Source of the DNA: Thermoplasmata archaeon
GTDB taxonomy: Archaea > Thermoplasmatota > Thermoplasmata > UBA10834
Reading direction: 5' to 3'
NCBI GenBank assembly: GCA_021789945.1
Contig: JAJYIS010000001.1
Location: forward strand, 13,476 to 77,475
DNA: 64,000 nt
In this document: piece after piece, positions 22,451-43,126 of the stretch
Position numbering within the stretch: position 1 is the stretch's first letter
Layout of the letters: each line of letters starts with the position of its first letter
The notes under the pieces: generated by a model
The model's database searches: none
Told to the model about the DNA's origin: nothing
Seen by the model: the letters and a program-made list of their open reading frames with translations, nothing else
Made by a program: the position numbers and the translations under genes

Positions 22451-23176
22451 ATGGTCGACGCGCTGCAGATCGTGAGCGCGGTCGCGGGCTTCGCGCCCCC
22501 GCTCGCGCTGCTGTACTTCACTCTGAAGGACTACACGTACCCGAAGGTCAAGGAGCCGTTCTTCGACGACTCCAAGATATTCAAGTTCTTCTCGCTCGGG
22601 ATCGTGCTCGGGATGGTCATCTTCGCGTTCGAGGACTGGGGCAGGACGATGGGCTCCCTGGACATGCTGGTCATCCTGAACGTGCTGTTCGCGGTGATGG
22701 AGGAGTCGATGAAGCTCGTCATCCTGAACTTCCCGAGGTTCCAGAGAAAGGTCGACACCGCGTTCTACGGGCTCTCGCTCGGCCTCGGGATCGCGATGAC
22801 GCTGACGTTCGCGTCCGTGTACTCGAGCCTGCTCGGGCTAAAGAACCCCGGGCCGTTCGAGATGGTCGTCTACTCGCTCTTCGGGCTGCAGCTGGTCCTG
22901 CTCCACGGGTCCACCACGACGCTGATCGGGGTGGGCGTGGTGAGAGGGGACATCAAGGGGTACTTCTCGGAGGCGCTCCTCATCCACCTGGGGTACGGCC
23001 TGCTCATGATCCTGTTCTTCAACGCGTTCTTCCCGCTGGACTTCGTCGGGCTCGGCCTGGCCTCCGCTGTCGTCGTCTATGGGTACTACAAGATACACAC
23101 GCTCTCGCTCCCGGTCCTGATTAGGGACGCGAAGCGGCTCATGCTCAAGACCTCGGCCGCGTCTAAGCCTGCCTAA
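22451..23176 (+). CDS. Polytopic membrane protein, PrsW-like glutamic protease family (degenerate)
   Basis: EESMK and LLHGSTT motifs; roughly 7-8 hydrophobic segments. Confidence 0.55.
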   Translation: MVDALQIVSAVAGFAPPLALLYFTLKDYTYPKVKEPFFDDSKIFKFFSLGIVLGMVIFAFEDWGRTMGSLDMLVILNVLFAVMEESMKLVILNFPRFQRKVDTAFYGLSLGLGIAMTLTFASVYSSLLGLKNPGPFEMVVYSLFGLQLVLLHGSTTTLIGVGVVRGDIKGYFSEALLIHLGYGLLMILFFNAFFPLDFVGLGLASAVVVYGYYKIHTLSLPVLIRDAKRLMLKTSAASKPA

Positions 23177-23615
23177 ACTTCCCGGGGCCGACCTCGTAGA
23201 TAATCCCGAGCTCGAGCAGTCTCGCCGCGAGCGCGTCCGGGTCCTTCTTCCCGAGGACCGTGGCGGCCTTCTCCATGTCCTCATGGCCGAGTTCCTTCTT
23301 CGACGCTACGAGCTCCGCGACCACCGCGCGCATCCTCTCGAGCGGGTCCTTGATCGACGAGATCCTTTCGGAGATAGCGTCCTCGACCACGCGCTTCCTC
23401 TTCTTCCTCGCGCGAGGCATCGGCCCAGCTCCCTTCAGAGAGGCGTTCACCTCGGCGACCATCTGGGCCAGCTCGTGGGGGGAGTCGGTCACGAACCTGA
23501 GCTTCATCCTGGCGAGCTTTATCTGCCGGCCGCACTGGCAGGTGGTCGTCTTCCTGGAGCTCTCGACGCCCCTCGCCCTCCCGCACTTCGGACAGACTAT
23601 CACGCCGTACTTCAA
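23163..23615 (-). CDS. DUF1922-like zinc-ribbon protein
   Basis: VIVCPKCGRARGVESSRKTTTCQCGR N-terminus. Confidence 0.65.
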   Translation of the reverse strand: MKYGVIVCPKCGRARGVESSRKTTTCQCGRQIKLARMKLRFVTDSPHELAQMVAEVNASLKGAGPMPRARKKRKRVVEDAISERISSIKDPLERMRAVVAELVASKKELGHEDMEKAATVLGKKDPDALAARLLELGIIYEVGPGKFRQA

Positions 23616-23640: not shown

Positions 23641-24573
23641 CTAGAACGAGCGCATCTCCTTCTCGAGGAGCTTCAGCTGCGACTCGGGGAGCGTAAGCGG
23701 GCTCACGGGGACCAGCATCACGGAGTCCGAGACGGCGATCTTGTCGTTCACGTGCTGGAGCAGCTTGAGCACCTTCTGAAAGTCGTTCTGGGATATGAGA
23801 TACTCGAGCCCGGACAGAAGGACCATGCAGCTCTTGTTCTCGGAGATGAAGGTCTTGATGTCGGAGTAGAGCAGCGCCAGGTTCGTCGGGTCGCGGGCAT
23901 AGGGCTTCTCCTGGTCCATCGACAGCCACAGGAAGGGCACGTTCTTGAGCTCGTACCTGTCCTTGAGCTTCTCAGGGTACTCCCTCGTCACGCACAGGCT
24001 CGGGACGTTGTGCTTCGCCGCGTCGATGAATATGTCGTACGACTGGTCCGGGACCTCCTCCTTGACGAGATAGGAGTACCCGGACTCGAGGCTGAACTTC
24101 CGGACGTTGTCGGGCTCGTGCACCTTGCCCGGCTTCAGCAGGTCCAGGACCTCGTACACCTGCATCACGCAGGCCATGTACCCCTGGCTTGCGCACTCGA
24201 CCTCGTCCACCTCGAACCTCTTCCCGAGGAGCTGCGAGACTATCCCGGACAGGTAGCCCCTCGCGAAGTCGCAGGTCTTGCCCTCCTTCGCCTCGACGGA
24301 CTCCTCGAGGTTCACGACCATCTGGCTCTCCTCGATGGAGTCGATCCTGAGCCGACTCAGTCCGGCCTCCATCCACACGGGCTCGATGACGGACTTCGTC
24401 TCGGCGAGGCTGTCGACCGACAGCCCGAAACTCTCGACCAAGGCATGGCCGCACCTCTGCCCATATCTGTAAAGCATCAGCCTCGCGCGCTGGTCGCCCT
24501 CGACGATCTCCAGCTCCTCCCGAAGATGGGCGAGGGCGATGCCCGGCATGACGAAGAACGGGAGGGACCTCAT
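23641..24573 (-). CDS. V4R domain + DUF835 domain protein
   Basis: V4R motif TCDFARGYLSG...EVECASQGYMAC; DUF835-type LCVTREYP, FLWLS and LLSGLEYLISQNDF; ATG overlaps the GTPase stop (ATGA). Confidence 0.8.
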   Translation of the reverse strand: MRSLPFFVMPGIALAHLREELEIVEGDQRARLMLYRYGQRCGHALVESFGLSVDSLAETKSVIEPVWMEAGLSRLRIDSIEESQMVVNLEESVEAKEGKTCDFARGYLSGIVSQLLGKRFEVDEVECASQGYMACVMQVYEVLDLLKPGKVHEPDNVRKFSLESGYSYLVKEEVPDQSYDIFIDAAKHNVPSLCVTREYPEKLKDRYELKNVPFLWLSMDQEKPYARDPTNLALLYSDIKTFISENKSCMVLLSGLEYLISQNDFQKVLKLLQHVNDKIAVSDSVMLVPVSPLTLPESQLKLLEKEMRSF

Positions 24574-25082
24574 TTCGCGCCCTCCAGAAGCCTCCTGCCA
24601 ATGGAGGCGAAGGCGGCCTCGACATTCAGGCCCGTCTTGGCGCTCGTCTCGAGCACGTCGCATCCGATCGAGGAGCCGAACGAGCGCAGCTCGTCGAGTG
24701 TGAAGGCCTTGCTCAGATCGGACTTGTTGCCGAGAAGGATGACCGGCATGTCCCCGACCACGGACCTGAAGTTCCCGACCCAGGTTTTCAGGGACCTCAT
24801 CGTCTCAGGGCGGGTGAAGTCGCACACTGCGAGCGCGCCCGCCGCTCCCTTGTAGTATGCCGCGTGCAGCGCTTCCTGGGTCCTCTGTCCGAGTATGTCC
24901 CAGACCATCAGGTCCATCGTCGAGTCTCCGACGGTGACGGACTTCTTCGAGACCTTCGTCCCGAAGGACTGGATGTACTTGTCGTCGAACACGTCGAACA
25001 CGAACCTCCTCACGAGGCTCGTCTTGCCCACTGCCCCATCCCCCAGAAGGCAGAGCTTGATGATGTACTTGGCAGAGGACAT
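24570..25082 (-). CDS. Rab/Ras-like small GTPase
   Basis: G1 GDGAVGKTS, G2 region YIQSFG, G3 WDILGQ, G4 GNKSD, G5 ETSAKTG. Confidence 0.9.
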   Translation of the reverse strand: MSSAKYIIKLCLLGDGAVGKTSLVRRFVFDVFDDKYIQSFGTKVSKKSVTVGDSTMDLMVWDILGQRTQEALHAAYYKGAAGALAVCDFTRPETMRSLKTWVGNFRSVVGDMPVILLGNKSDLSKAFTLDELRSFGSSIGCDVLETSAKTGLNVEAAFASIGRRLLEGAK

Positions 25083-25192
25083 CAGAAACGAAAGTTAATG
25101 CCCGGATGGATATATAACGGTTGATAGCGCTGGAATCGGCAGGAATGGACAGGTCGGCCAGTACTGTCGCGTTGGGCGGAGGAGGGAGGTCT

Positions 25193-25939
25193 GTGAAGAG
25201 GACTTTGGAGGCCGAGAACGACGCGATCCACGCGCACAGGCTCAGGAAGGTGTACGACGACCTGGTCGCGGTCGACGACATCGACCTCAAGATCGCCAAG
25301 GGCCAACTGTACGGCATGATCGGGCCGAACGGCTCCGGCAAGACCACGACCATCAAGATGCTCGTCGGGCTGCTGAGGCTGACCTCGGGGAAGGCTTACG
25401 TCCTCGGGGAGAAGGTGCCGATCTCGCAGAACATCTCCCGGATCGGCTACATGCCCCAGGAGATGGCCATCTACACGGACCTGACCGTCCGCGAGAACCT
25501 CCAGCTGTTCTCAGAGTTGTACTCTATCGACCCGAAGAAGTTCGAGGGCCGCGCGGACGACCTCCTGAAGGTGATCGACCTCGCGGACCGCAAGGACAGC
25601 CTCGTGTCCGAGCTCAGCGGAAGCATGAGGCACAGGGTCTCGCTCGCGTGCGCTCTCGTGCACGACCCCGAGGTCGTCTTCCTGGACGAGCCGACCGTGG
25701 GCGTCGACCCCGAGCTGAGGGTGGGCTTCTGGAAGTACTTCGCGGACCTCAAGGAGAAGGGGAAGACCATCGTCCTCACGACGCACTACATGGACGAGGC
25801 CGTGAGGTGCGACACCGTCGGCATGATGAGGGCCGGCAGGATGATCGCCGAGGGCAGCCCGAAGGGGCTCATGGAGGAATCGGGGACGGCCGACCTCGAG
25901 TCCGCGTTCCTGACGTTCGCCAAGAAGGTGGGCTCGTGA
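25193..25939 (+). CDS. ABC-2 type exporter, ATP-binding protein
   Basis: GPNGSGKTT, LSGSMRHR (signature variant), FLDEPT and TTHY motifs; GTG start after GGAGG. Confidence 0.92.
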   Translation: MKRTLEAENDAIHAHRLRKVYDDLVAVDDIDLKIAKGQLYGMIGPNGSGKTTTIKMLVGLLRLTSGKAYVLGEKVPISQNISRIGYMPQEMAIYTDLTVRENLQLFSELYSIDPKKFEGRADDLLKVIDLADRKDSLVSELSGSMRHRVSLACALVHDPEVVFLDEPTVGVDPELRVGFWKYFADLKEKGKTIVLTTHYMDEAVRCDTVGMMRAGRMIAEGSPKGLMEESGTADLESAFLTFAKKVGS

Positions 25940-27063
25940 GGCTCAACAGGGTCCTGGCGATCGCGAAGAAGAACCTGAGGTCGCTGAAGCACGACAGGCG
26001 CACGGTGGGCTTCCTGGTCCTTATGCCGCTCCTCATGATAACCATCTTCGGCTACACCTTCGGAGGGACCATCCAGAACGTCAGCGTGTACATTGTGAAC
26101 CTGGACCAGGCCCCGTCCAACTCGTCTGTCTCCGAGAAGATAATCGCGAGCCTCGAGTCGACCGACACCCTGCACATCGTCAAGATGCTCACGACCCCGG
26201 ACGGGGTGGGCGCCGCGGCCGAGGAGGTTAAGGACGCGCACATCTGGGCGGCGATCGTCTTCAACGAGACCTTCTCGGCCGACGTCTTGGCGGCCTCCAG
26301 GTCCCTCGGGCCCCCGGCCTCGATCCAGCTGATCATCGACGGGACGAACCCGAACATCGTATCGGCCGTCACGGGCGAGCTCCAGACGGCCATAAGGTCC
26401 GTCATCGGGTCCGGGGCCGCCGCGCCCATGAGCGTGGCTCCCGACCTGGTCTACGGCAAGGACGCGAGGTTCATCGACTTCTTCGCGCCCGGGGTCATGG
26501 GCCTCGCGGCGATGATGGTCACGTTCATGCTCTCGATCATATCGTTCGTGCACGAGAGGAGCGGGTCCACCCTCGACCGCCTGCTCAGCACGCCCGTGAC
26601 CGAGGGGGAGATCGTCGCGGGCTATGCGCTCGCGTTCGGGTTCGTGGGCCTCATCCAATCTTGCGTGATCATATCCGCGGCCATCCTGCTGTTCAACGTG
26701 ATGATCGTCGGGAACGTGCTCCTCGCGCTCCTGGTCGTGTTCGTGCTGGGCGTCGGCAACCAAGGCCTCGGGTTCATGCTCTCGTCCTTCGCGAAGAACG
26801 AGTTCCAGGCAATACAGTTCCTGCCGCTCATACTGTTCCCGTCGATTCTCCTCTCGGGCGTGTTCTGGCCCCTCGAGGCGGTGCCCACGCTCCTGAGGCC
26901 CGTGTCCTATTTCATCCCCCTGACCTATGCCGTCGAGGGGCTGAGGTCCGTGATGATCAGAGGCTGGTCGATCGACGGCATCTGGGTGCAGCTCGTGGTG
27001 CTCCTCGGCTTCGCGGTCGCGATGCTGCTCCTGAGCGCGCTGGGCCTCAAGAGGAGGAGGTGA
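25936..27063 (+). CDS. ABC-2 type exporter, permease
   Basis: GTGA overlap with the ATPase gene; HERSGSTLDRLLSTP, LSGVFWPLE and PLTYAV motifs. Confidence 0.9.
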   Translation: MRLNRVLAIAKKNLRSLKHDRRTVGFLVLMPLLMITIFGYTFGGTIQNVSVYIVNLDQAPSNSSVSEKIIASLESTDTLHIVKMLTTPDGVGAAAEEVKDAHIWAAIVFNETFSADVLAASRSLGPPASIQLIIDGTNPNIVSAVTGELQTAIRSVIGSGAAAPMSVAPDLVYGKDARFIDFFAPGVMGLAAMMVTFMLSIISFVHERSGSTLDRLLSTPVTEGEIVAGYALAFGFVGLIQSCVIISAAILLFNVMIVGNVLLALLVVFVLGVGNQGLGFMLSSFAKNEFQAIQFLPLILFPSILLSGVFWPLEAVPTLLRPVSYFIPLTYAVEGLRSVMIRGWSIDGIWVQLVVLLGFAVAMLLLSALGLKRRR

Positions 27064-27067
27064 GAGG

Positions 27068-27892
27068 GTGATCGACGCGAAGCCCAGGGTCATCTTTGTC
27101 TCAGAAGGCCACGAGATCACCCACAGGCAGATGCAGGCCCTCGCGGAGCTCAACCTGAAAGGGAGCATGAAGAAGGCAGCCGCGTCCCTGGGGATATCGA
27201 CGCCGGTCCTGCACAAGTACATACACGAGGTCGAGGAGAAGGCGGACCTGGAGCTCGTCACGACGACCAGCACCGGCAGCCGGCTGACGAAGGACGGGTT
27301 AGAGCTCCTCAAGAAGTTCGGGGAGTTCGAGCTCCGGCTCCAGGACGACGAGCATCTCAGGGTCGCGGGGACGATAGTCTCCCAGAGGAGCGTCCTCGTC
27401 GCGGCGTCCGAGATCTCCCAGGCAGGCAAGGTCTGCATGGTCACCATAGCCACGGACGAGCAGAATCTGAGGCTCATGCGCGAGGGGAGGGTGGACTGCG
27501 TGGTCTTCGACGACGCGATCAACGCGATGGAGAATGCCCCTGAGCGGGACGTGTGCGAGATCGGCACAGACATGCTGATGCACAGGGACAACGGCCCGAG
27601 GCATGCGCGCATGGCGTTCGGCGCGCAGAGGATCGCCTTCAGGCACCTCGACGAGCAGGAGATACCGCACGAGGTCGTGAGGATGTTCCACGAGCCGACC
27701 ATGGTCGACCGCACCGAGCTGAGCTACTTCATCAACAGGAGCCTCGTGCGCACGGGCGTGGTCAAGGCCGTGGGTGCGAAGGACGCGCCGTGGTCTTTGC
27801 ACTCGATCTCCGCGCTGCAGTGCTCGGAGCATGGGGACCTGCCGGCGTTCTTGGAAGAGGCCAGGGAGGCTTGGATTTACCGGAAAGGGTAA
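27068..27892 (+). CDS. LysR/ModE-like HTH transcriptional regulator
   Basis: GSMKKAAASLGISTPVLHKYIHEVE...SRLTKDG HTH_1 pattern. Confidence 0.8.
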   Translation: MIDAKPRVIFVSEGHEITHRQMQALAELNLKGSMKKAAASLGISTPVLHKYIHEVEEKADLELVTTTSTGSRLTKDGLELLKKFGEFELRLQDDEHLRVAGTIVSQRSVLVAASEISQAGKVCMVTIATDEQNLRLMREGRVDCVVFDDAINAMENAPERDVCEIGTDMLMHRDNGPRHARMAFGAQRIAFRHLDEQEIPHEVVRMFHEPTMVDRTELSYFINRSLVRTGVVKAVGAKDAPWSLHSISALQCSEHGDLPAFLEEAREAWIYRKG

Positions 27893-27949
27893 CGCTTAAC
27901 CCTTATCAGCAAAACCCTGATATATGGCCATAGCCCTGACATAGCCTCG

Positions 27950-28474
27950 GTGAGTAGCTTGGCGGAGGCTAAGGTACCTAATCCGGAGTTCACCCGGAAG
28001 GTCATCGAGCAAGGGGGCAAGACGGTCAACCTGTGCTTCCAATGCGGAACATGCACGGGCAGCTGTCCGTCTGGACGGCAGACCGCTTTCAGAGTGAGGA
28101 AGGTCGTGAGGAGGGCTCAGTTGGGGTTCGAGGAGGACGTGCTGCCGTCGGAGGACCTGTGGCTGTGCACCACGTGCTTCACGTGCTACGAGAGATGCCC
28201 GAGGGGCGTCGAGATCGTGGACATCATCATGGCCCTCAGGAACATGGCCGTGCGGAAGGGCTACATGGCCGAGCCGCACAGGAAGGTCGCGGAGCTGATC
28301 TCCAAGACCGGGCACATGGTCTCGCTGAGGGACGAGGACAAGGCGCTGAGAAAGAAGCTCGGGCTGCAGGAGACCCCGCCGACGGTGCTCTCGGACCCGA
28401 AGATGCTGGAGCAGGTCAAGAAGATCACGGAGCTCTGCGGCTTCGACAAGCTCGTCGCCTCCGGAGGGAAGTGA
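27950..28474 (+). CDS. hdrC: Heterodisulfide reductase subunit C
   Basis: CFQCGTCTGSCPSG and LWLCTTCFTCYERCPRGV motifs. Confidence 0.93.
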   Translation: MSSLAEAKVPNPEFTRKVIEQGGKTVNLCFQCGTCTGSCPSGRQTAFRVRKVVRRAQLGFEEDVLPSEDLWLCTTCFTCYERCPRGVEIVDIIMALRNMAVRKGYMAEPHRKVAELISKTGHMVSLRDEDKALRKKLGLQETPPTVLSDPKMLEQVKKITELCGFDKLVASGGK

Positions 28475-28475
28475 C

Positions 28476-29333
28476 ATGGCGAAGTACGCGTTCTTCCTGG
28501 GCTGCATCATGCCGCTCAGGTATCCAGGGATCGAGAGCTCGACCAGGGAGGTCATGAAGTCGCTCGGCGTCGAGCTCGTCGACATGCAGGGCGCGAGCTG
28601 CTGCCCGGCGCCCGGGGTCACGAGGTCCTTCGACCAGAACTACTGGATGAGCCTCGCGGCGAGGAACCTCACGATAGCGGAGAAGATGGGCATGGACGTG
28701 CTCACGATCTGCAACGGCTGCTTCGACACGCTCTTCGAGACCGCCCACAAGCTCAACCACGACCCCGAGCTGAGGAAGAAGGTCAACAAGACGCTCAGGG
28801 ACGCGACGGGCGTGGAGTACAACGGCACGGTCAACGTGCGCCACTTCGTCGAGCTGCTGTACCGCGATGTCGGCCTCGACGCGATCAAGTCGAAGGTCAA
28901 GGGGGGCAAGAACCTCAAGGCCGCGGTGCACTACGGCTGCCACTTCCTCAAGCCGAGCAACATCAAGAAGATCGACGACGCCGAGAGGCCGCACGTCTTC
29001 GACGACATAGTCGAGGCCGCGGGCATGACGAGCGTCGCGTACAAGGACAAGGGGATGTGCTGCGGCGCAGGCGGAGGCGTGAGGGCGAGGACCCCGGACG
29101 TCGCGCTCAAGATGACGAAGGAGAACCTGGTTAACATGCAGGCCGCGGGCGTCGATGTCATCGTGGACTGCTGCCCGTTCTGCCACCTGCAGTACGACGT
29201 CGGCCAGGTGCAGCTCAAGGAGCTGCAGCAGAAGATACCGGTCCTGCACCTCTCGCAGCTGCTCGGCCTGGCTTTCGGGCTCGAGAAGGACAAGCTGGGG
29301 CTCGAGGTACACCAGGTCAAGGTAAACCTCTAG
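28476..29333 (+). CDS. hdrB: Heterodisulfide reductase subunit B
   Basis: FFLGC, SCCPAPG, CNGC, HYGCH, CCGAGGG and CCPFCHLQYD (two CCG domains). Confidence 0.94.
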   Translation: MAKYAFFLGCIMPLRYPGIESSTREVMKSLGVELVDMQGASCCPAPGVTRSFDQNYWMSLAARNLTIAEKMGMDVLTICNGCFDTLFETAHKLNHDPELRKKVNKTLRDATGVEYNGTVNVRHFVELLYRDVGLDAIKSKVKGGKNLKAAVHYGCHFLKPSNIKKIDDAERPHVFDDIVEAAGMTSVAYKDKGMCCGAGGGVRARTPDVALKMTKENLVNMQAAGVDVIVDCCPFCHLQYDVGQVQLKELQQKIPVLHLSQLLGLAFGLEKDKLGLEVHQVKVNL

Positions 29334-40540: not shown

Positions 40541-42370
40541 ATGAAGGGTTACACTGGCAGGATACTCAAGATTGACCTCACGTCCGGCAAGTCCTTCACG
40601 AGGACATTCGACGAGAGCTACGTGAGGAAGTACCTCGGAGGGCAGGGGTTCGCCGTGGAACTCGTGTACCACGGCGTCCCGAAGGGCACGGATGCGCTCG
40701 ACCCCAAGAACGTGCTCGCGATGTCCGGCGGGGCGTTCAACGGGTTCCCGATCGGCACCGCGAGCAAGGTCGCATGGGCCTCGAAGTCCCCGGCGACGGG
40801 CACGCTCGCCGAGAGCATCATGGGCGGGTCGATCGGGCCGGAGCTGAAGCACGCGGGCTACGACGCGCTCGAGATCGTCGGCAAGGCCAGCGCGCCATCT
40901 TACATCTACATAGAGGACGACACGGTCGACATCAGGGATGCGGGCGACCTCTGGGGGAAGGACACCAGAGTGGTCCCGGAGACGCTCAAGATGCGCCATG
41001 GCTGGGACGTGAAGGTTGCGTGCATCGGCGTGGCCGGGGAAAAGCTCTCGAAGATCGCGGGCATCGACTGCGACGACAGGCAGGCTGGGAGGGCGGGCCT
41101 CGGAGCGGTCATGGGCTCGAAGAACCTCAAGGCGATCGTAGTCCGCGGGACGAAGGACCTCGTGCCCCACGACCCGAAGGCGGTCCTGAGGCTGGCGTAC
41201 CAGTACCAGAGGATCTACCAGGCTGCCGGATCCTGGGTCGAGGACACGAAGTACGGCACCGGCGAGTTCCTGGGCTGGGTCAACAAGGAGAGGGGCGTCT
41301 TCCCGACGAGGAACTGGCAGGAGAGCGTCTTCAACGAGCGGGAGAAGATAGATCCGTACTACTGGGCCACGAGATACGTCACGAAGAACAAGGCGTGTTT
41401 CTCGTGCACGAAGCCCTGCGGGAAGCTGTTCGAGGTCAAGGACGGCAAGTTCAAGGGCGTCGCGATCGACGGAATCGAGTACGAGACACTCTACTCGCTC
41501 GGCGCGGCGTGCGGCAACGCAGACGTCGAGTCTGTCGCGAGGGCGAACGAGCTGTGTGACCTGCTGGGCATCGACACCATATCCGCAGGTGTCACGGTCG
41601 GGTTCGCCATGGAGCTGTTCCAGCGCGGGATCATCACGGAGAAGGAGACCGGAGTCAACCTCGCCTGGAGCAACGCCTCGGACGCAGTCCCGCAGATGAT
41701 AGAGCTGATGGGCAACAGGAAGGGCTTCGGCGATGTCCTCGCGGACGGCGTCAAGGTCGCCGCGAAGAGGATCGGAAAGGGCTCAGAGAGATACGCGATC
41801 CACACGAAGGGACTGGAGCCGCCGGCGTACGACGTCAGGGGCATGAAGGGCCACGGCCTCGCCTACATGACCTCGACCAGGGGCGCGTGCCACCTGCGGG
41901 CCGGGTTCTACGCCCCGGAGCTCGTGGGCAAGTTCTGGAAGTGGGAGGGCATAGACAGGTTCTCCGCCGTCGGCAAGGGCCCCATGGTCGCCACGATGGA
42001 GAACTTCATGTGTGTCTACGACTCCGTCGGCCTGTGCAAGTTCTCGAGGGGGTTCTATCTCATCGCGAAGCTTCCCGAGGTGCTCGAGGCGATCACCGGC
42101 CTGAAGTTCACCGAGGATGAGCTGCTCAAGATCGGCGAGCGCATACACAACATGAAGGGCAACTTCAACGCGCGCGAGGGCGTTACGAGGAAGGACTGGC
42201 TCCTCCCGCCCAGGATCCTCGAGGACCCGATCCCCGAGGGCGTCTCGAAGGGCCACAAGATAAGCGTCGAGGAGATGAACCTCATGCTCGACGACTACAT
42301 GAAGGCCCGGAACTGGACGAGCGACGGCGTCCCCACGCCGGAGAAGCTGAAGGATCTCGGGATCGACTAG
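40541..42370 (+). CDS. aor: Tungsten aldehyde:ferredoxin oxidoreductase family protein
   Basis: GYTGRILKIDL, KSPATG, GRAGLGAVMGSKNLKA, EYETL, DLLGIDTIS and RGACH motifs. Confidence 0.93.
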   Translation: MKGYTGRILKIDLTSGKSFTRTFDESYVRKYLGGQGFAVELVYHGVPKGTDALDPKNVLAMSGGAFNGFPIGTASKVAWASKSPATGTLAESIMGGSIGPELKHAGYDALEIVGKASAPSYIYIEDDTVDIRDAGDLWGKDTRVVPETLKMRHGWDVKVACIGVAGEKLSKIAGIDCDDRQAGRAGLGAVMGSKNLKAIVVRGTKDLVPHDPKAVLRLAYQYQRIYQAAGSWVEDTKYGTGEFLGWVNKERGVFPTRNWQESVFNEREKIDPYYWATRYVTKNKACFSCTKPCGKLFEVKDGKFKGVAIDGIEYETLYSLGAACGNADVESVARANELCDLLGIDTISAGVTVGFAMELFQRGIITEKETGVNLAWSNASDAVPQMIELMGNRKGFGDVLADGVKVAAKRIGKGSERYAIHTKGLEPPAYDVRGMKGHGLAYMTSTRGACHLRAGFYAPELVGKFWKWEGIDRFSAVGKGPMVATMENFMCVYDSVGLCKFSRGFYLIAKLPEVLEAITGLKFTEDELLKIGERIHNMKGNFNAREGVTRKDWLLPPRILEDPIPEGVSKGHKISVEEMNLMLDDYMKARNWTSDGVPTPEKLKDLGID

Positions 42371-42714
42371 ATCATCTTGATGGTCTCGGCGATCTCATCG
42401 AGCTTGCTGATGGCCAACGCCGCGTCGCCCTTCCTTCCGACGACCGCCACGATCAGGGCCTTCCTCCCGGCCCCGACGACGACCATCTTCGCGTCCTCGC
42501 TCTCTACCGTGACATGCAGCGGGATGCCGACCCTCAGCTCGGAGTTCGCCGTCGAGGCGGCGCCCAGGAGGGTCGCGCACATGATGCCGAACGTCTCCAT
42601 CGAGACCCCTTCGGGCACGTCGGCGGCGATCACCAATCCGTCCCTGCTGATGACCGCGGATGCGGTTGCACCGCAGCTCTGTCTCAGAGCCCTGAGTGCG
42701 GGCTTCAGTTCCAT
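42367..42714 (-). CDS. Roadblock/LC7 (MglB-like) domain protein
   Basis: ASAVISRDGLVIAA...FGIMCATLLGAA...VTVESEDAKMVVVGAG pattern. Confidence 0.85.
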   Translation of the reverse strand: MELKPALRALRQSCGATASAVISRDGLVIAADVPEGVSMETFGIMCATLLGAASTANSELRVGIPLHVTVESEDAKMVVVGAGRKALIVAVVGRKGDAALAISKLDEIAETIKMI

Positions 42715-42715
42715 C

Positions 42716-43126
42716 CTATTCCCCTCCGAGCATCTCGACCTTGAAAACGCAGTGCTTGTCGCCCTTCGCAGCGCACTCGATCTCCTCGCAGTGGACCCGC
42801 CTGTGGGTCTTGGCCTCGTAGACCTTCCTGACGATGCCCCTCAGCCGGTGGCACGCGACGGCCTCCGAGGGAGCCGCCTCGATCGAGCCCTCGGCGACAG
42901 CGGTGGACTCCTGGAAGACGATATTGTCCACCCACCCGCGAGCGCGAAGCAGGTTCCCGCAGACCTCGAAGTACTTCTCGGGCTCCTGCATCGCGATCTT
43001 GGATATCTCCTCGCCGAAGATCATGCCCTCCCTGAAAAACAGCCCGTAGCAGGCCTGGGACATGACGCCTTCGTACAGCTTCCTTATCTGGTCGTACTCT
43101 GACTGGGAGAGCTTGACGAATTTCAT
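42716..43126 (-). CDS. Stand-alone V4R domain protein
   Basis: ACHRLRGIVR...CEEIECAAKGDKHCVF V4R Cys/His pattern. Confidence 0.82.
   Translation of the reverse strand: MKFVKLSQSEYDQIRKLYEGVMSQACYGLFFREGMIFGEEISKIAMQEPEKYFEVCGNLLRARGWVDNIVFQESTAVAEGSIEAAPSEAVACHRLRGIVRKVYEAKTHRRVHCEEIECAAKGDKHCVFKVEMLGGE

Follow-up and report, generated by a model that had tools for sequence, protein, structure and literature searches.

A small GTPase gene and the gene that overlaps its end

The window analysed in this work is a stretch of 64,000 nucleotides (nt) of an archaeal genome (GenBank assembly GCA_021789945.1, contig JAJYIS010000001.1, positions 13,476 to 77,475). Its minus strand carries, at positions 23,641 to 25,082, the gene of a Ras/Rab-like small GTPase followed immediately by the gene of a protein made of a V4R and a DUF835 domain, which we call the partner. 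The host genome, in which the window is contig C110 in our numbering, comprises 2.0 Mb with a G+C content of 61%, is 88% complete, and contains five Ras-family GTPases and 14 DUF835 loci. Most labels on homologues of the partner read 'Thermoplasmata archaeon' or 'Thermoplasmatota archaeon', and homologues of about 45% identity were labelled Methanomassiliicoccales. These labels identify the host as a member of the Thermoplasmatota, which agrees with a preliminary annotation of the window made before any database search (the sequence-only reading), where a module of this kind was claimed to exist outside the Asgard archaea.

The GTPase gene (24570..25082, minus strand) encodes 170 amino acids. 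The protein matched the Pfam Ras family at 9e-35 (120 bits, cut-off 21.6), with further matches to Roc and Arf; the small_GTP family, TIGR00231, recognized it at 7.7e-18. On re-reading the translation we located G1 at G14DGAVGKT21, G2 at T42, G3 at W61DILGQ66, G4 at N119KSD122 and G5 at E145TSAK149, and the complete G1-G5 set that the sequence-only reading had recognized from WDILGQ, NKSD and ETSAK proved exact in motifs and coordinates. These motifs, within a single G domain of about 170 residues, are those that define the Ras superfamily (PF00071), and as all the catalytic motifs are present, including the catalytic Gln66, the protein should bind and hydrolyze GTP. Its top 60 sequence matches in the PDB were all Rabs, 59 of them eukaryotic and one from Thorarchaeota; these included Rab21 (1.6e-29), Rab31, Rab1B, Rab11A and the Thorarchaeota Rab 7ezb (8.7e-27). 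The protein also carries YYKGA, which resembles the RabF4 motif YYRGA, but its switch I is SFGTK and not TIGVDF. On the other hand, the C-terminus (...GRRLLEGAK) contains no prenylation cysteines of the CC or CXC type, nor any Cys past residue 141 or other lipidation signal; therefore, prenylation as in a true Rab is impossible. We call the protein 'Rab-like' only by its best matches. A putative TATA-like box, TTATATAT (25110..25117, minus strand), precedes the GTPase ATG by 28-35 nt and falls in the short stretch between this gene and a divergently oriented ABC-transporter gene.

The partner gene (23641..24573, minus strand; 310 amino acids) lies directly downstream of the GTPase gene. The plus strand at 24570-24573 reads tcat, and the GTPase TGA (24572-24570) overlaps the partner ATG (24573-24571), forming an ATGA stop/start overlap (24570..24573, minus strand), a signal of translational coupling that had been called correctly to the base. 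A longer reading of the partner, of 340 amino acids, is possible from an in-frame upstream ATG. However, the approximately 120 partner homologues among the matches listed measured 302-311 amino acids and shared the N-terminus MRxxPFFVMPG, and on account of these lengths and starts the ATG within the overlap, and not that of the longer reading, was taken as the real start.

The V4R domain (24139..24573, minus strand) comprises partner residues 1-145. Pfam PF02830 covered residues 87-139 (1.3e-12, 48 bits, cut-off 31), and the archaeal V4R protein MJ1460 (2osd) was matched by sequence at 1.7e-4. In a HMMER alignment to PoxR (5fru), the putative zinc-site residues C101, E124, C127 and C135 fell on PoxR C151, E174, C177 and C185, and their spacing of 23/3/8 (C-x22-E-x2-C-x7-C) is that of XylR C149/E172/C175/C183; in XylR numbering these are the positions whose residues have been described, for PoxR, MopR and DmpR, as proven ligands of a structural zinc. 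The four residues vary little or not at all from family to family. An AlphaFold2 (AF2) model of the full-length protein had a mean predicted local distance difference test (pLDDT) of 77, with values of about 70-88 for the V4R part and a disordered linker. When the V4R model was searched with Foldseek, the bacterial phenol sensors DmpR, PoxR and MopR ranked first, matching with their ligand-sensor domains at E about 2e-7, followed by MJ1460 (1e-5); H-NOX, BcsD and YslB were matched as well. Mouse and human Bet3, TRAPPC3, TPC6 and the Thorarchaeota TRAPPC3 were found at E values of 2e-5 to 4e-4 with template modelling (TM) scores of 0.6-0.73, and among the Bet3 matches were chains from within TRAPP-Ypt1/Ypt32 complexes (3cue_D, 7kmt_F and 7u05_F). 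Overall, the structure stands as near to Bet3/TRAPPC3 as to the phenol sensors. In contrast to this structural likeness, no TRAPP/Bet3 family was matched in Pfam at E<=0.01, and a search of PDB sequences up to E<=1 gave no TRAPP chain. Hence, the homology to Bet3 that had been asserted stands at the level of the fold and not at that of Bet3-family sequence. Considering the Foldseek ranking, the C-E-C-C zinc site aligned with that of PoxR and the invariance of its residues, this domain is a bona fide sensor-type V4R, with a Bet3 fold but without Bet3-family sequence membership.

A low-confidence linker (24082..24138, minus strand; residues ~146-164, with pLDDT <50 over residues 150-175), whose sequence and length differ among families, joins V4R to the DUF835 domain (23644..24081, minus strand; residues 165-310). 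The latter matched PF05763 over residues 175-307 (4.8e-32, 111 bits, cut-off 33), and modelled alone by AF2 it reached a pLDDT of 94. Foldseek retrieved KaiC (4.6e-5), FlaH (5.9e-5), PH0284, Sso2452 and Rho, with TMq values of 0.6-0.69, and the sequence profile matched FlaH (4yds) weakly, at E 0.018. No Walker A pattern ([AG]x4GK[ST]) occurs in the domain, for which the label 'DUF835 (iKaiC)' has been published (PMC5847659). Therefore, it was rightly described as an inactive KaiC/RecA-like fold, and the 14 copies in the host genome are in line with the claim that it is common in the signaling proteins of this lineage. DUF835 is a widespread C-terminal module: an exhaustive search of representative sequences gave 1,511 DUF835 representatives at E<=1e-10, and V4R was present in only about 21 of the best 150. 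The copies of the host genome follow transmembrane regions, a DnaA-like AAA domain and others, while elsewhere, according to the Pfam analysis of ten long candidates, DUF835 follows 7TM, REC-PAS and AAA domains and also occurs in tandem.

Two other loci of the host genome, both outside the window, deserve mention in relation to this domain. Contig C40 (4182-5892, minus strand) contains an operon encoding a stand-alone V4R (126 amino acids), a KaiC-like ATPase with an intact Walker A motif (GEPGTGKT), a stand-alone DUF835 (176 amino acids) and a P-loop protein that reads VLTGPGKGKT..., and thereby ties together V4R, active KaiC and dead KaiC modules. Contig C122 (6678-8852, plus strand) encodes a 716-residue protein in which a zinc ribbon and an AAA+ domain of the bacterial DnaA type (PF00308, 5.8e-49) are combined with DUF835 at the C-terminus; its N-terminal region resembles a region fused to a GTPase at locus L059 (motif FTGY..., with no Pfam match).

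Conservation of the gene pair in Thermoplasmatota

In two relatives, whose partners are 71% and 64% identical to that of the window, the order GTPase, V4R-DUF835 and a downstream zinc-ribbon gene was preserved. Since the wider neighborhood was also syntenic in these genomes, a broader sampling was needed. Loci were annotated by stop-to-stop open reading frames and by phmmer with the domains of the window itself, rather than with gene-calling software. When one genome of each species was scanned with a V4R-DUF835 profile, 80 loci were obtained, all from Thermoplasmatota, that span Thermoplasmata metagenome-assembled genomes (MAGs) and Methanomassiliicoccales, with partner identities down to about 40%. 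A GTPase gene lay directly upstream on the same strand, ending at the start of V4R-DUF835, in 77 of them. Two of the three loci lacking it (L123 and L124, from Thermoplasmatota MAGs) have a divergent KaiC-like ATPase gene upstream. The sequence-only reading had proposed a synteny survey, and this one shows the two genes remaining together in related genomes.

A sample of 401 genomes of the phylum gave a similar picture. Close relatives of the GTPase were present in at least 56 genomes and the V4R subfamily in at least 40, of which 39 also had the GTPase (Fisher p=1.5e-39, a value that ignores phylogeny). At least 44 of the 59 V4R hits abut a Ras-like GTPase, as judged by comparing coordinates, part of which were checked; among the remaining hits, about nine are second V4R genes in the same cluster and five were left unassigned, in part because of contig ends. 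The V4R of one genome (G076) comes from a genome without a GTPase match among those listed.

The association persists through rearrangement of the genes. The reversed order, V4R-DUF835 followed by the GTPase, was observed in families f42 and f49 (L065-L069). The GTPase is followed by a stand-alone V4R, DUF835 having been lost, at L037, L040, L044, L060 and L076, and tandem clusters of the type GTPase, V4R-DUF835, GTPase, V4R exist at L033 and L034. Furthermore, single-chain fusions of Ras to DUF835 without V4R were identified in L046 (G190:C59:10024-11247, confirmed by Pfam, with a Gln-rich linker), P0206, P0221 and P0230, and this fusion recurs in at least four clusters defined at 50% identity. 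Gene fusions are classic evidence of a physical or functional interaction. The complete chain GTPase::V4R::DUF835 was not found, the top 120 matches to a concatenated query being all unfused orthologues, and neither was a GTPase::V4R fusion in the exhaustive representative search and the Pfam analysis of ten long candidates.

The GTPases themselves carry a trace of the linkage. When 59 GTPase domains of Thermoplasmatota were placed in one tree, those linked to V4R clustered strongly, with seven label changes against a mean of 19.8 after shuffling (none of 500 shuffles was as low), and the GTPase of the window belongs to a clade of 13 GTPases linked to V4R-DUF835, with a Shimodaira-Hasegawa-like approximate likelihood ratio test (SH-aLRT) support of 97. 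The main difference between linked GTPases and unlinked paralogues resides in switch II, where L72 and Y77 are conserved specifically in the former, a weak hint that the partner may read the switch face of the GTPase. In the host genome, none of the other four GTPase paralogues has a V4R or DUF835 neighbor, implying that the link to V4R-DUF835 is specific to the paralogue of the window.

Together, the counts by species and by phylum, the rearrangements, the spacing of the two genes and the GTPase tree indicate that the linkage is not due to chance. Adjacency in several classes of the phylum, variation in gene order and the GTPase::DUF835 fusions strongly support a functional coupling of the GTPase and the partner, as the sequence-only reading had supposed, and a pattern of obligate adjacency, coupling and fusion is characteristic of proteins acting upon one another. 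The GTPase and V4R-DUF835 very probably constitute an undescribed GTPase signaling module distributed across Thermoplasmatota. In our view the two are probably a cognate switch-sensor pair, made as one translationally coupled unit and feeding a pseudo-KaiC output domain.

Several points weigh against this view. Much of the 77 of 80 comes from related genomes in which the wider neighborhood is syntenic as well; the counts of the 401-genome survey are lower bounds; the signal in switch II consists of two positions only; two genomes of family f4 (G055 and G131) keep both genes with V4R unlinked from the GTPase; and only one of the 13 DUF835 genes examined in the host genome has a KaiC-like neighbor, which weakens the proposed step toward a KaiC hub. 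The same count led us to reject, for the host genome, the idea that DUF835 genes generally lie beside KaiC genes.

Some of these points are what would be expected if the two genes were simply co-regulated neighbors, without direct contact between their products, that share a pathway or only their expression, their adjacency being inherited synteny. Indeed, the relatives of 64-71% identity preserve the synteny of the whole neighborhood (TetR, ABC-transporter, HTH_1 and HdrCB-like genes to one side of the pair, a PAPS-reductase-like gene to the other), and the two f4 genomes show that the genes can exist apart. However, adjacency is kept in other classes with different flanks, and through reversed order, duplication, loss of DUF835 and fusion. 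In addition, 19 of 19 related loci, taken from different families, have a candidate partner start that overlaps the GTPase stop by 4 nt at most or follows it by no more than 16 nt; in six of these loci the only candidate is GTG or TTG. We therefore regard mere neighborhood as quite unlikely. A role in defense against viruses or mobile elements is, judging from the genomic context, far less probable still, to the point that we give it hardly any credit. It is suggested by analogy with the predicted conflict systems of a 2026 preprint, where V4R is joined to ParA and to TIR/HEPN effectors, but the pair studied here is a single-copy one, occupying one place per genome in the 80 species and lying in the same conserved neighborhood in three genomes of the order to which the window belongs, and no effector (nuclease, TIR or pore) is encoded at the locus.

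A possible sensor, switch and output unit and its known relatives

The cognate pair that we favor might work as follows. The GTPase would be a molecular switch of the Ras/Rab type, binding and hydrolyzing GTP. The V4R domain would act as a zinc-stabilized small-molecule sensor of the PoxR/MopR/DmpR type, its input being a small molecule or perhaps a thiol/zinc redox signal, and DUF835 would be the catalytically dead, KaiC/RecA-like output, an oligomerization or assembly module used behind many sensors. The GTPase would contact the partner directly, probably via its switch II face, so that the state of DUF835 would be set jointly by two inputs, namely whether V4R holds a ligand and which nucleotide the GTPase carries. 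This module would then hand the signal on, possibly to KaiC-type ATPases. DUF835 was assigned to the output end because it is regularly C-terminal, behind a sensor or receiver, and because in the fusions the GTPase takes the N-terminal place; KaiC-type ATPases were suggested as downstream partners because of the C40 operon and the KaiC genes beside the GTPase-less loci L123 and L124. We infer the physical contact, as well as the direction of action (the partner could promote nucleotide exchange, promote GTP hydrolysis or be an effector), the type of ligand and the target of the signal.

A different mechanism would follow if the V4R domain, as a homodimer with the Bet3 fold, were itself an exchange factor for the Rab-like GTPase, or the core of one, in a TRAPP-like relationship that predates eukaryotes and exists outside Asgard archaea. 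The structural matches of V4R to Bet3, TRAPPC3 and TPC6, including chains of TRAPP-Rab complexes, and the sequence matches of the GTPase to Rabs, Rab1 among them, agree with such a relationship, and so do the loci in which the GTPase is paired with V4R only, without DUF835. A further argument comes from a separate V4R-Roadblock gene pair, which couples Bet3-fold and Roadblock proteins in this lineage (Roadblock is directly downstream of V4R in 27 of the 30 loci examined); Roadblock proteins are longin-like. However, Bet3 alone is not known to be a guanine nucleotide exchange factor (GEF), and the exchange surface of TRAPP requires longin subunits besides Bet3, whereas the operon described here contains neither a longin nor a Roadblock gene. 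Moreover, V4R lacks a Pfam TRAPP/Bet3 match, bacterial ligand sensors are better than Bet3 proteins by structural E value and their C-E-C-C zinc site is kept, and the GTPase::DUF835 fusions without V4R imply that V4R is not the sole link between the two proteins. Tran et al. 2024 (PMC10933270) also concluded that the Asgard TRAPP/V4R proteins are most likely ligand binders. We consider the TRAPP-like mechanism unlikely, and rather less likely than the arrangement of sensor, switch and output.

An elaboration of this idea, which seems to us similarly improbable, is that Thermoplasmatota keep a minimal ancestral partnership between a Bet3-fold protein and a small GTPase. A ligand-gated zinc V4R dimer would sit on the Rab-like switch face and control the nucleotide state, and the V4R-Roadblock pair would be the other half of a GEF platform of the TRAPP/Ragulator type. 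Were this the case, the logic of TRAPP-Rab coupling would have originated before or outside the Asgard-eukaryote lineage.

Compared with the eukaryotic TRAPP core, the GEF of Rab1/Ypt1, the module is alike in pairing a Bet3-fold protein with a Rab-like GTPase. It differs in that the V4R protein is not a member of the family at the sequence level and retains zinc-site and sensor features, no longin subunit is encoded in the operon, V4R is joined to a pseudo-KaiC domain, and the GTPase lacks a site for prenylation. The closest working analogue is instead MglA-MglB, the analogy with TRAPP being structural only. Like MglA-MglB, the conservon CvnA-D and the Rup group 1 neighborhoods, the module belongs to prokaryotic signaling and consists of a single-domain GTPase of the Ras superfamily beside a dedicated non-enzymatic partner, by which the nucleotide state is presumably read or controlled. 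In contrast to MglA-MglB, that partner is a V4R-DUF835 protein and not Roadblock/MglB, both Roadblock genes of the host genome being located elsewhere (on contig C135 and at 42367-42714 of the window); and unlike MglA, the GTPase of the window has a canonical DxxGQ G3 and belongs with the 'Rup' or eukaryote-like branch. Wuichet & Sogaard-Andersen 2015 (PMC4316618) reported no conserved partners for archaeal Rup GTPases and did not mention V4R.

With the archaeal Rab-like and Asgard small GTPases, the protein shares Rab-like sequence features in the absence of C-terminal cysteines. Surkont & Pereira-Leal 2016 (PMC4915359) listed one Rab-like protein each in 'Thermoplasmatales archaeon' and Aciduliprofundum, without giving a partner. 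Tran et al. 2024 (PMC10933270), who give no partner either, state that the operons of MK-D1, an Asgard archaeon, do not generally combine small GTPase genes with those of Roadblock, longin or TRAPPC3 proteins, whereas in the Thermoplasmatota module the pairing of GTPase and partner is the rule.

The partner itself resembles the A domains of the sigma-54 activators XylR, DmpR, PoxR and MopR, which have the V4R fold, an identical zinc site and a P-loop-type domain behind it; here, a dead KaiC-like module replaces the active AAA+ ATPase with its DNA-binding domain, and a GTPase accompanies the protein. Makarova and colleagues are said to have described, in 2017, archaeal KaiC-like ATPases as signaling 'hubs'. 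As in the response regulators with iKaiC/DUF835, the domain is a C-terminal module behind sensor or receiver domains. Galperin et al. 2018 (PMC5847659) reported REC-DUF835 architectures of response regulators in Methanomicrobia and Thermoplasmata, but their list does not include V4R-DUF835 with an obligate GTPase neighbor or the Ras::DUF835 fusions. The paper that proposed V4R as the ancestor of Bet3 mentions neither GTPases nor operons, and among the published full texts on V4R with GTPase or Roadblock we found none describing the GTPase/V4R-DUF835 pair. Thus, the Rab-like GTPases of Thermoplasmata have already been published, while the V4R-DUF835 type of partner is undescribed in the literature searched.

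The partners of archaeal Ras/Rab-like GTPases have been essentially unknown so far, and Asgard operons reportedly give no clue as to which regulator serves which GTPase. The module offers a Rab-like GTPase with one obvious co-translated partner, distributed phylum-wide and present in the cultivable Methanomassiliicoccales, and hence a concrete two-protein system in which to study how a prokaryotic eukaryote-like GTPase is regulated. It joins two poorly understood elements of archaeal signaling, V4R sensors and pseudo-KaiC (DUF835), to a GTPase switch. The system is tractable and relevant to how Rab-like GTPases and the Bet3 fold evolved before eukaryotes arose, and it allows one to ask whether the Bet3/V4R fold already had a role connected with GTPases at that stage.

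Flanking genes and related arrangements

Downstream of the partner, at a distance of 25 nt, lies a possible third gene of the unit (23163..23615, minus strand), encoding a protein of 150 amino acids with an N-terminal zinc ribbon. Its Pfam matches were weak and below the cut-off (DUF5817 at 1e-6 and DUF1922 at 2.7e-6). A homologue was found no more than 1.2 kb downstream of V4R-DUF835 in 66 of the 80 species loci. However, the gene is absent at loci of other classes (L033-L035), for which reason it may be a passenger that reflects synteny alone. On the other side, divergent from the GTPase gene, positions 25121-29333 contain genes for an ABC-transporter ATPase and permease, an HTH_1-type regulator and HdrC/HdrB-like (Fer4/CCG) proteins. 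In relatives, the transporter and GTPase genes are separated by an additional TetR gene that the window lacks at this place.

The V4R-Roadblock pair is represented in the window by a stand-alone V4R of 136 amino acids (42716-43126, minus strand) followed within 1-2 nt by a Roadblock/LC7 protein of 115 amino acids (42367-42714, minus strand), 18 kb away from the GTPase locus. The stand-alone V4R of this pair is present in 86 of 121 genomes of the class, and no GTPase was located within 1.5 kb of the pair. The literature searched describes no case in which a protein of the Bet3 fold is paired with a Roadblock (longin-like) protein.

Other small GTPases of the phylum have acquired additional regions. 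A subfamily with a C-terminal helical extension of about 100 amino acids (...DFCxxYGD..., with no Pfam match) is represented in the host genome at C99:14190-15011 (minus strand) and C104:14792-15619 (plus strand), and also at L040, L048 and L061; a stand-alone copy of the extension occurs inside a GTPase-V4R cluster of another genome (L070:2385-2705). Fusions of tetratricopeptide (TPR) repeats to a Ras GTPase, 330-360 amino acids in length and several per genome, were found at L036 and L050-L056, which belong to other Thermoplasmatota families; that of L053 was confirmed by Pfam, three others show the same repeats on reading, and the rest were assigned from their length. In some Thermoplasmatota genomes the number of Ras-like GTPases reaches at least eight, which recalls the expansion in Asgard archaea.

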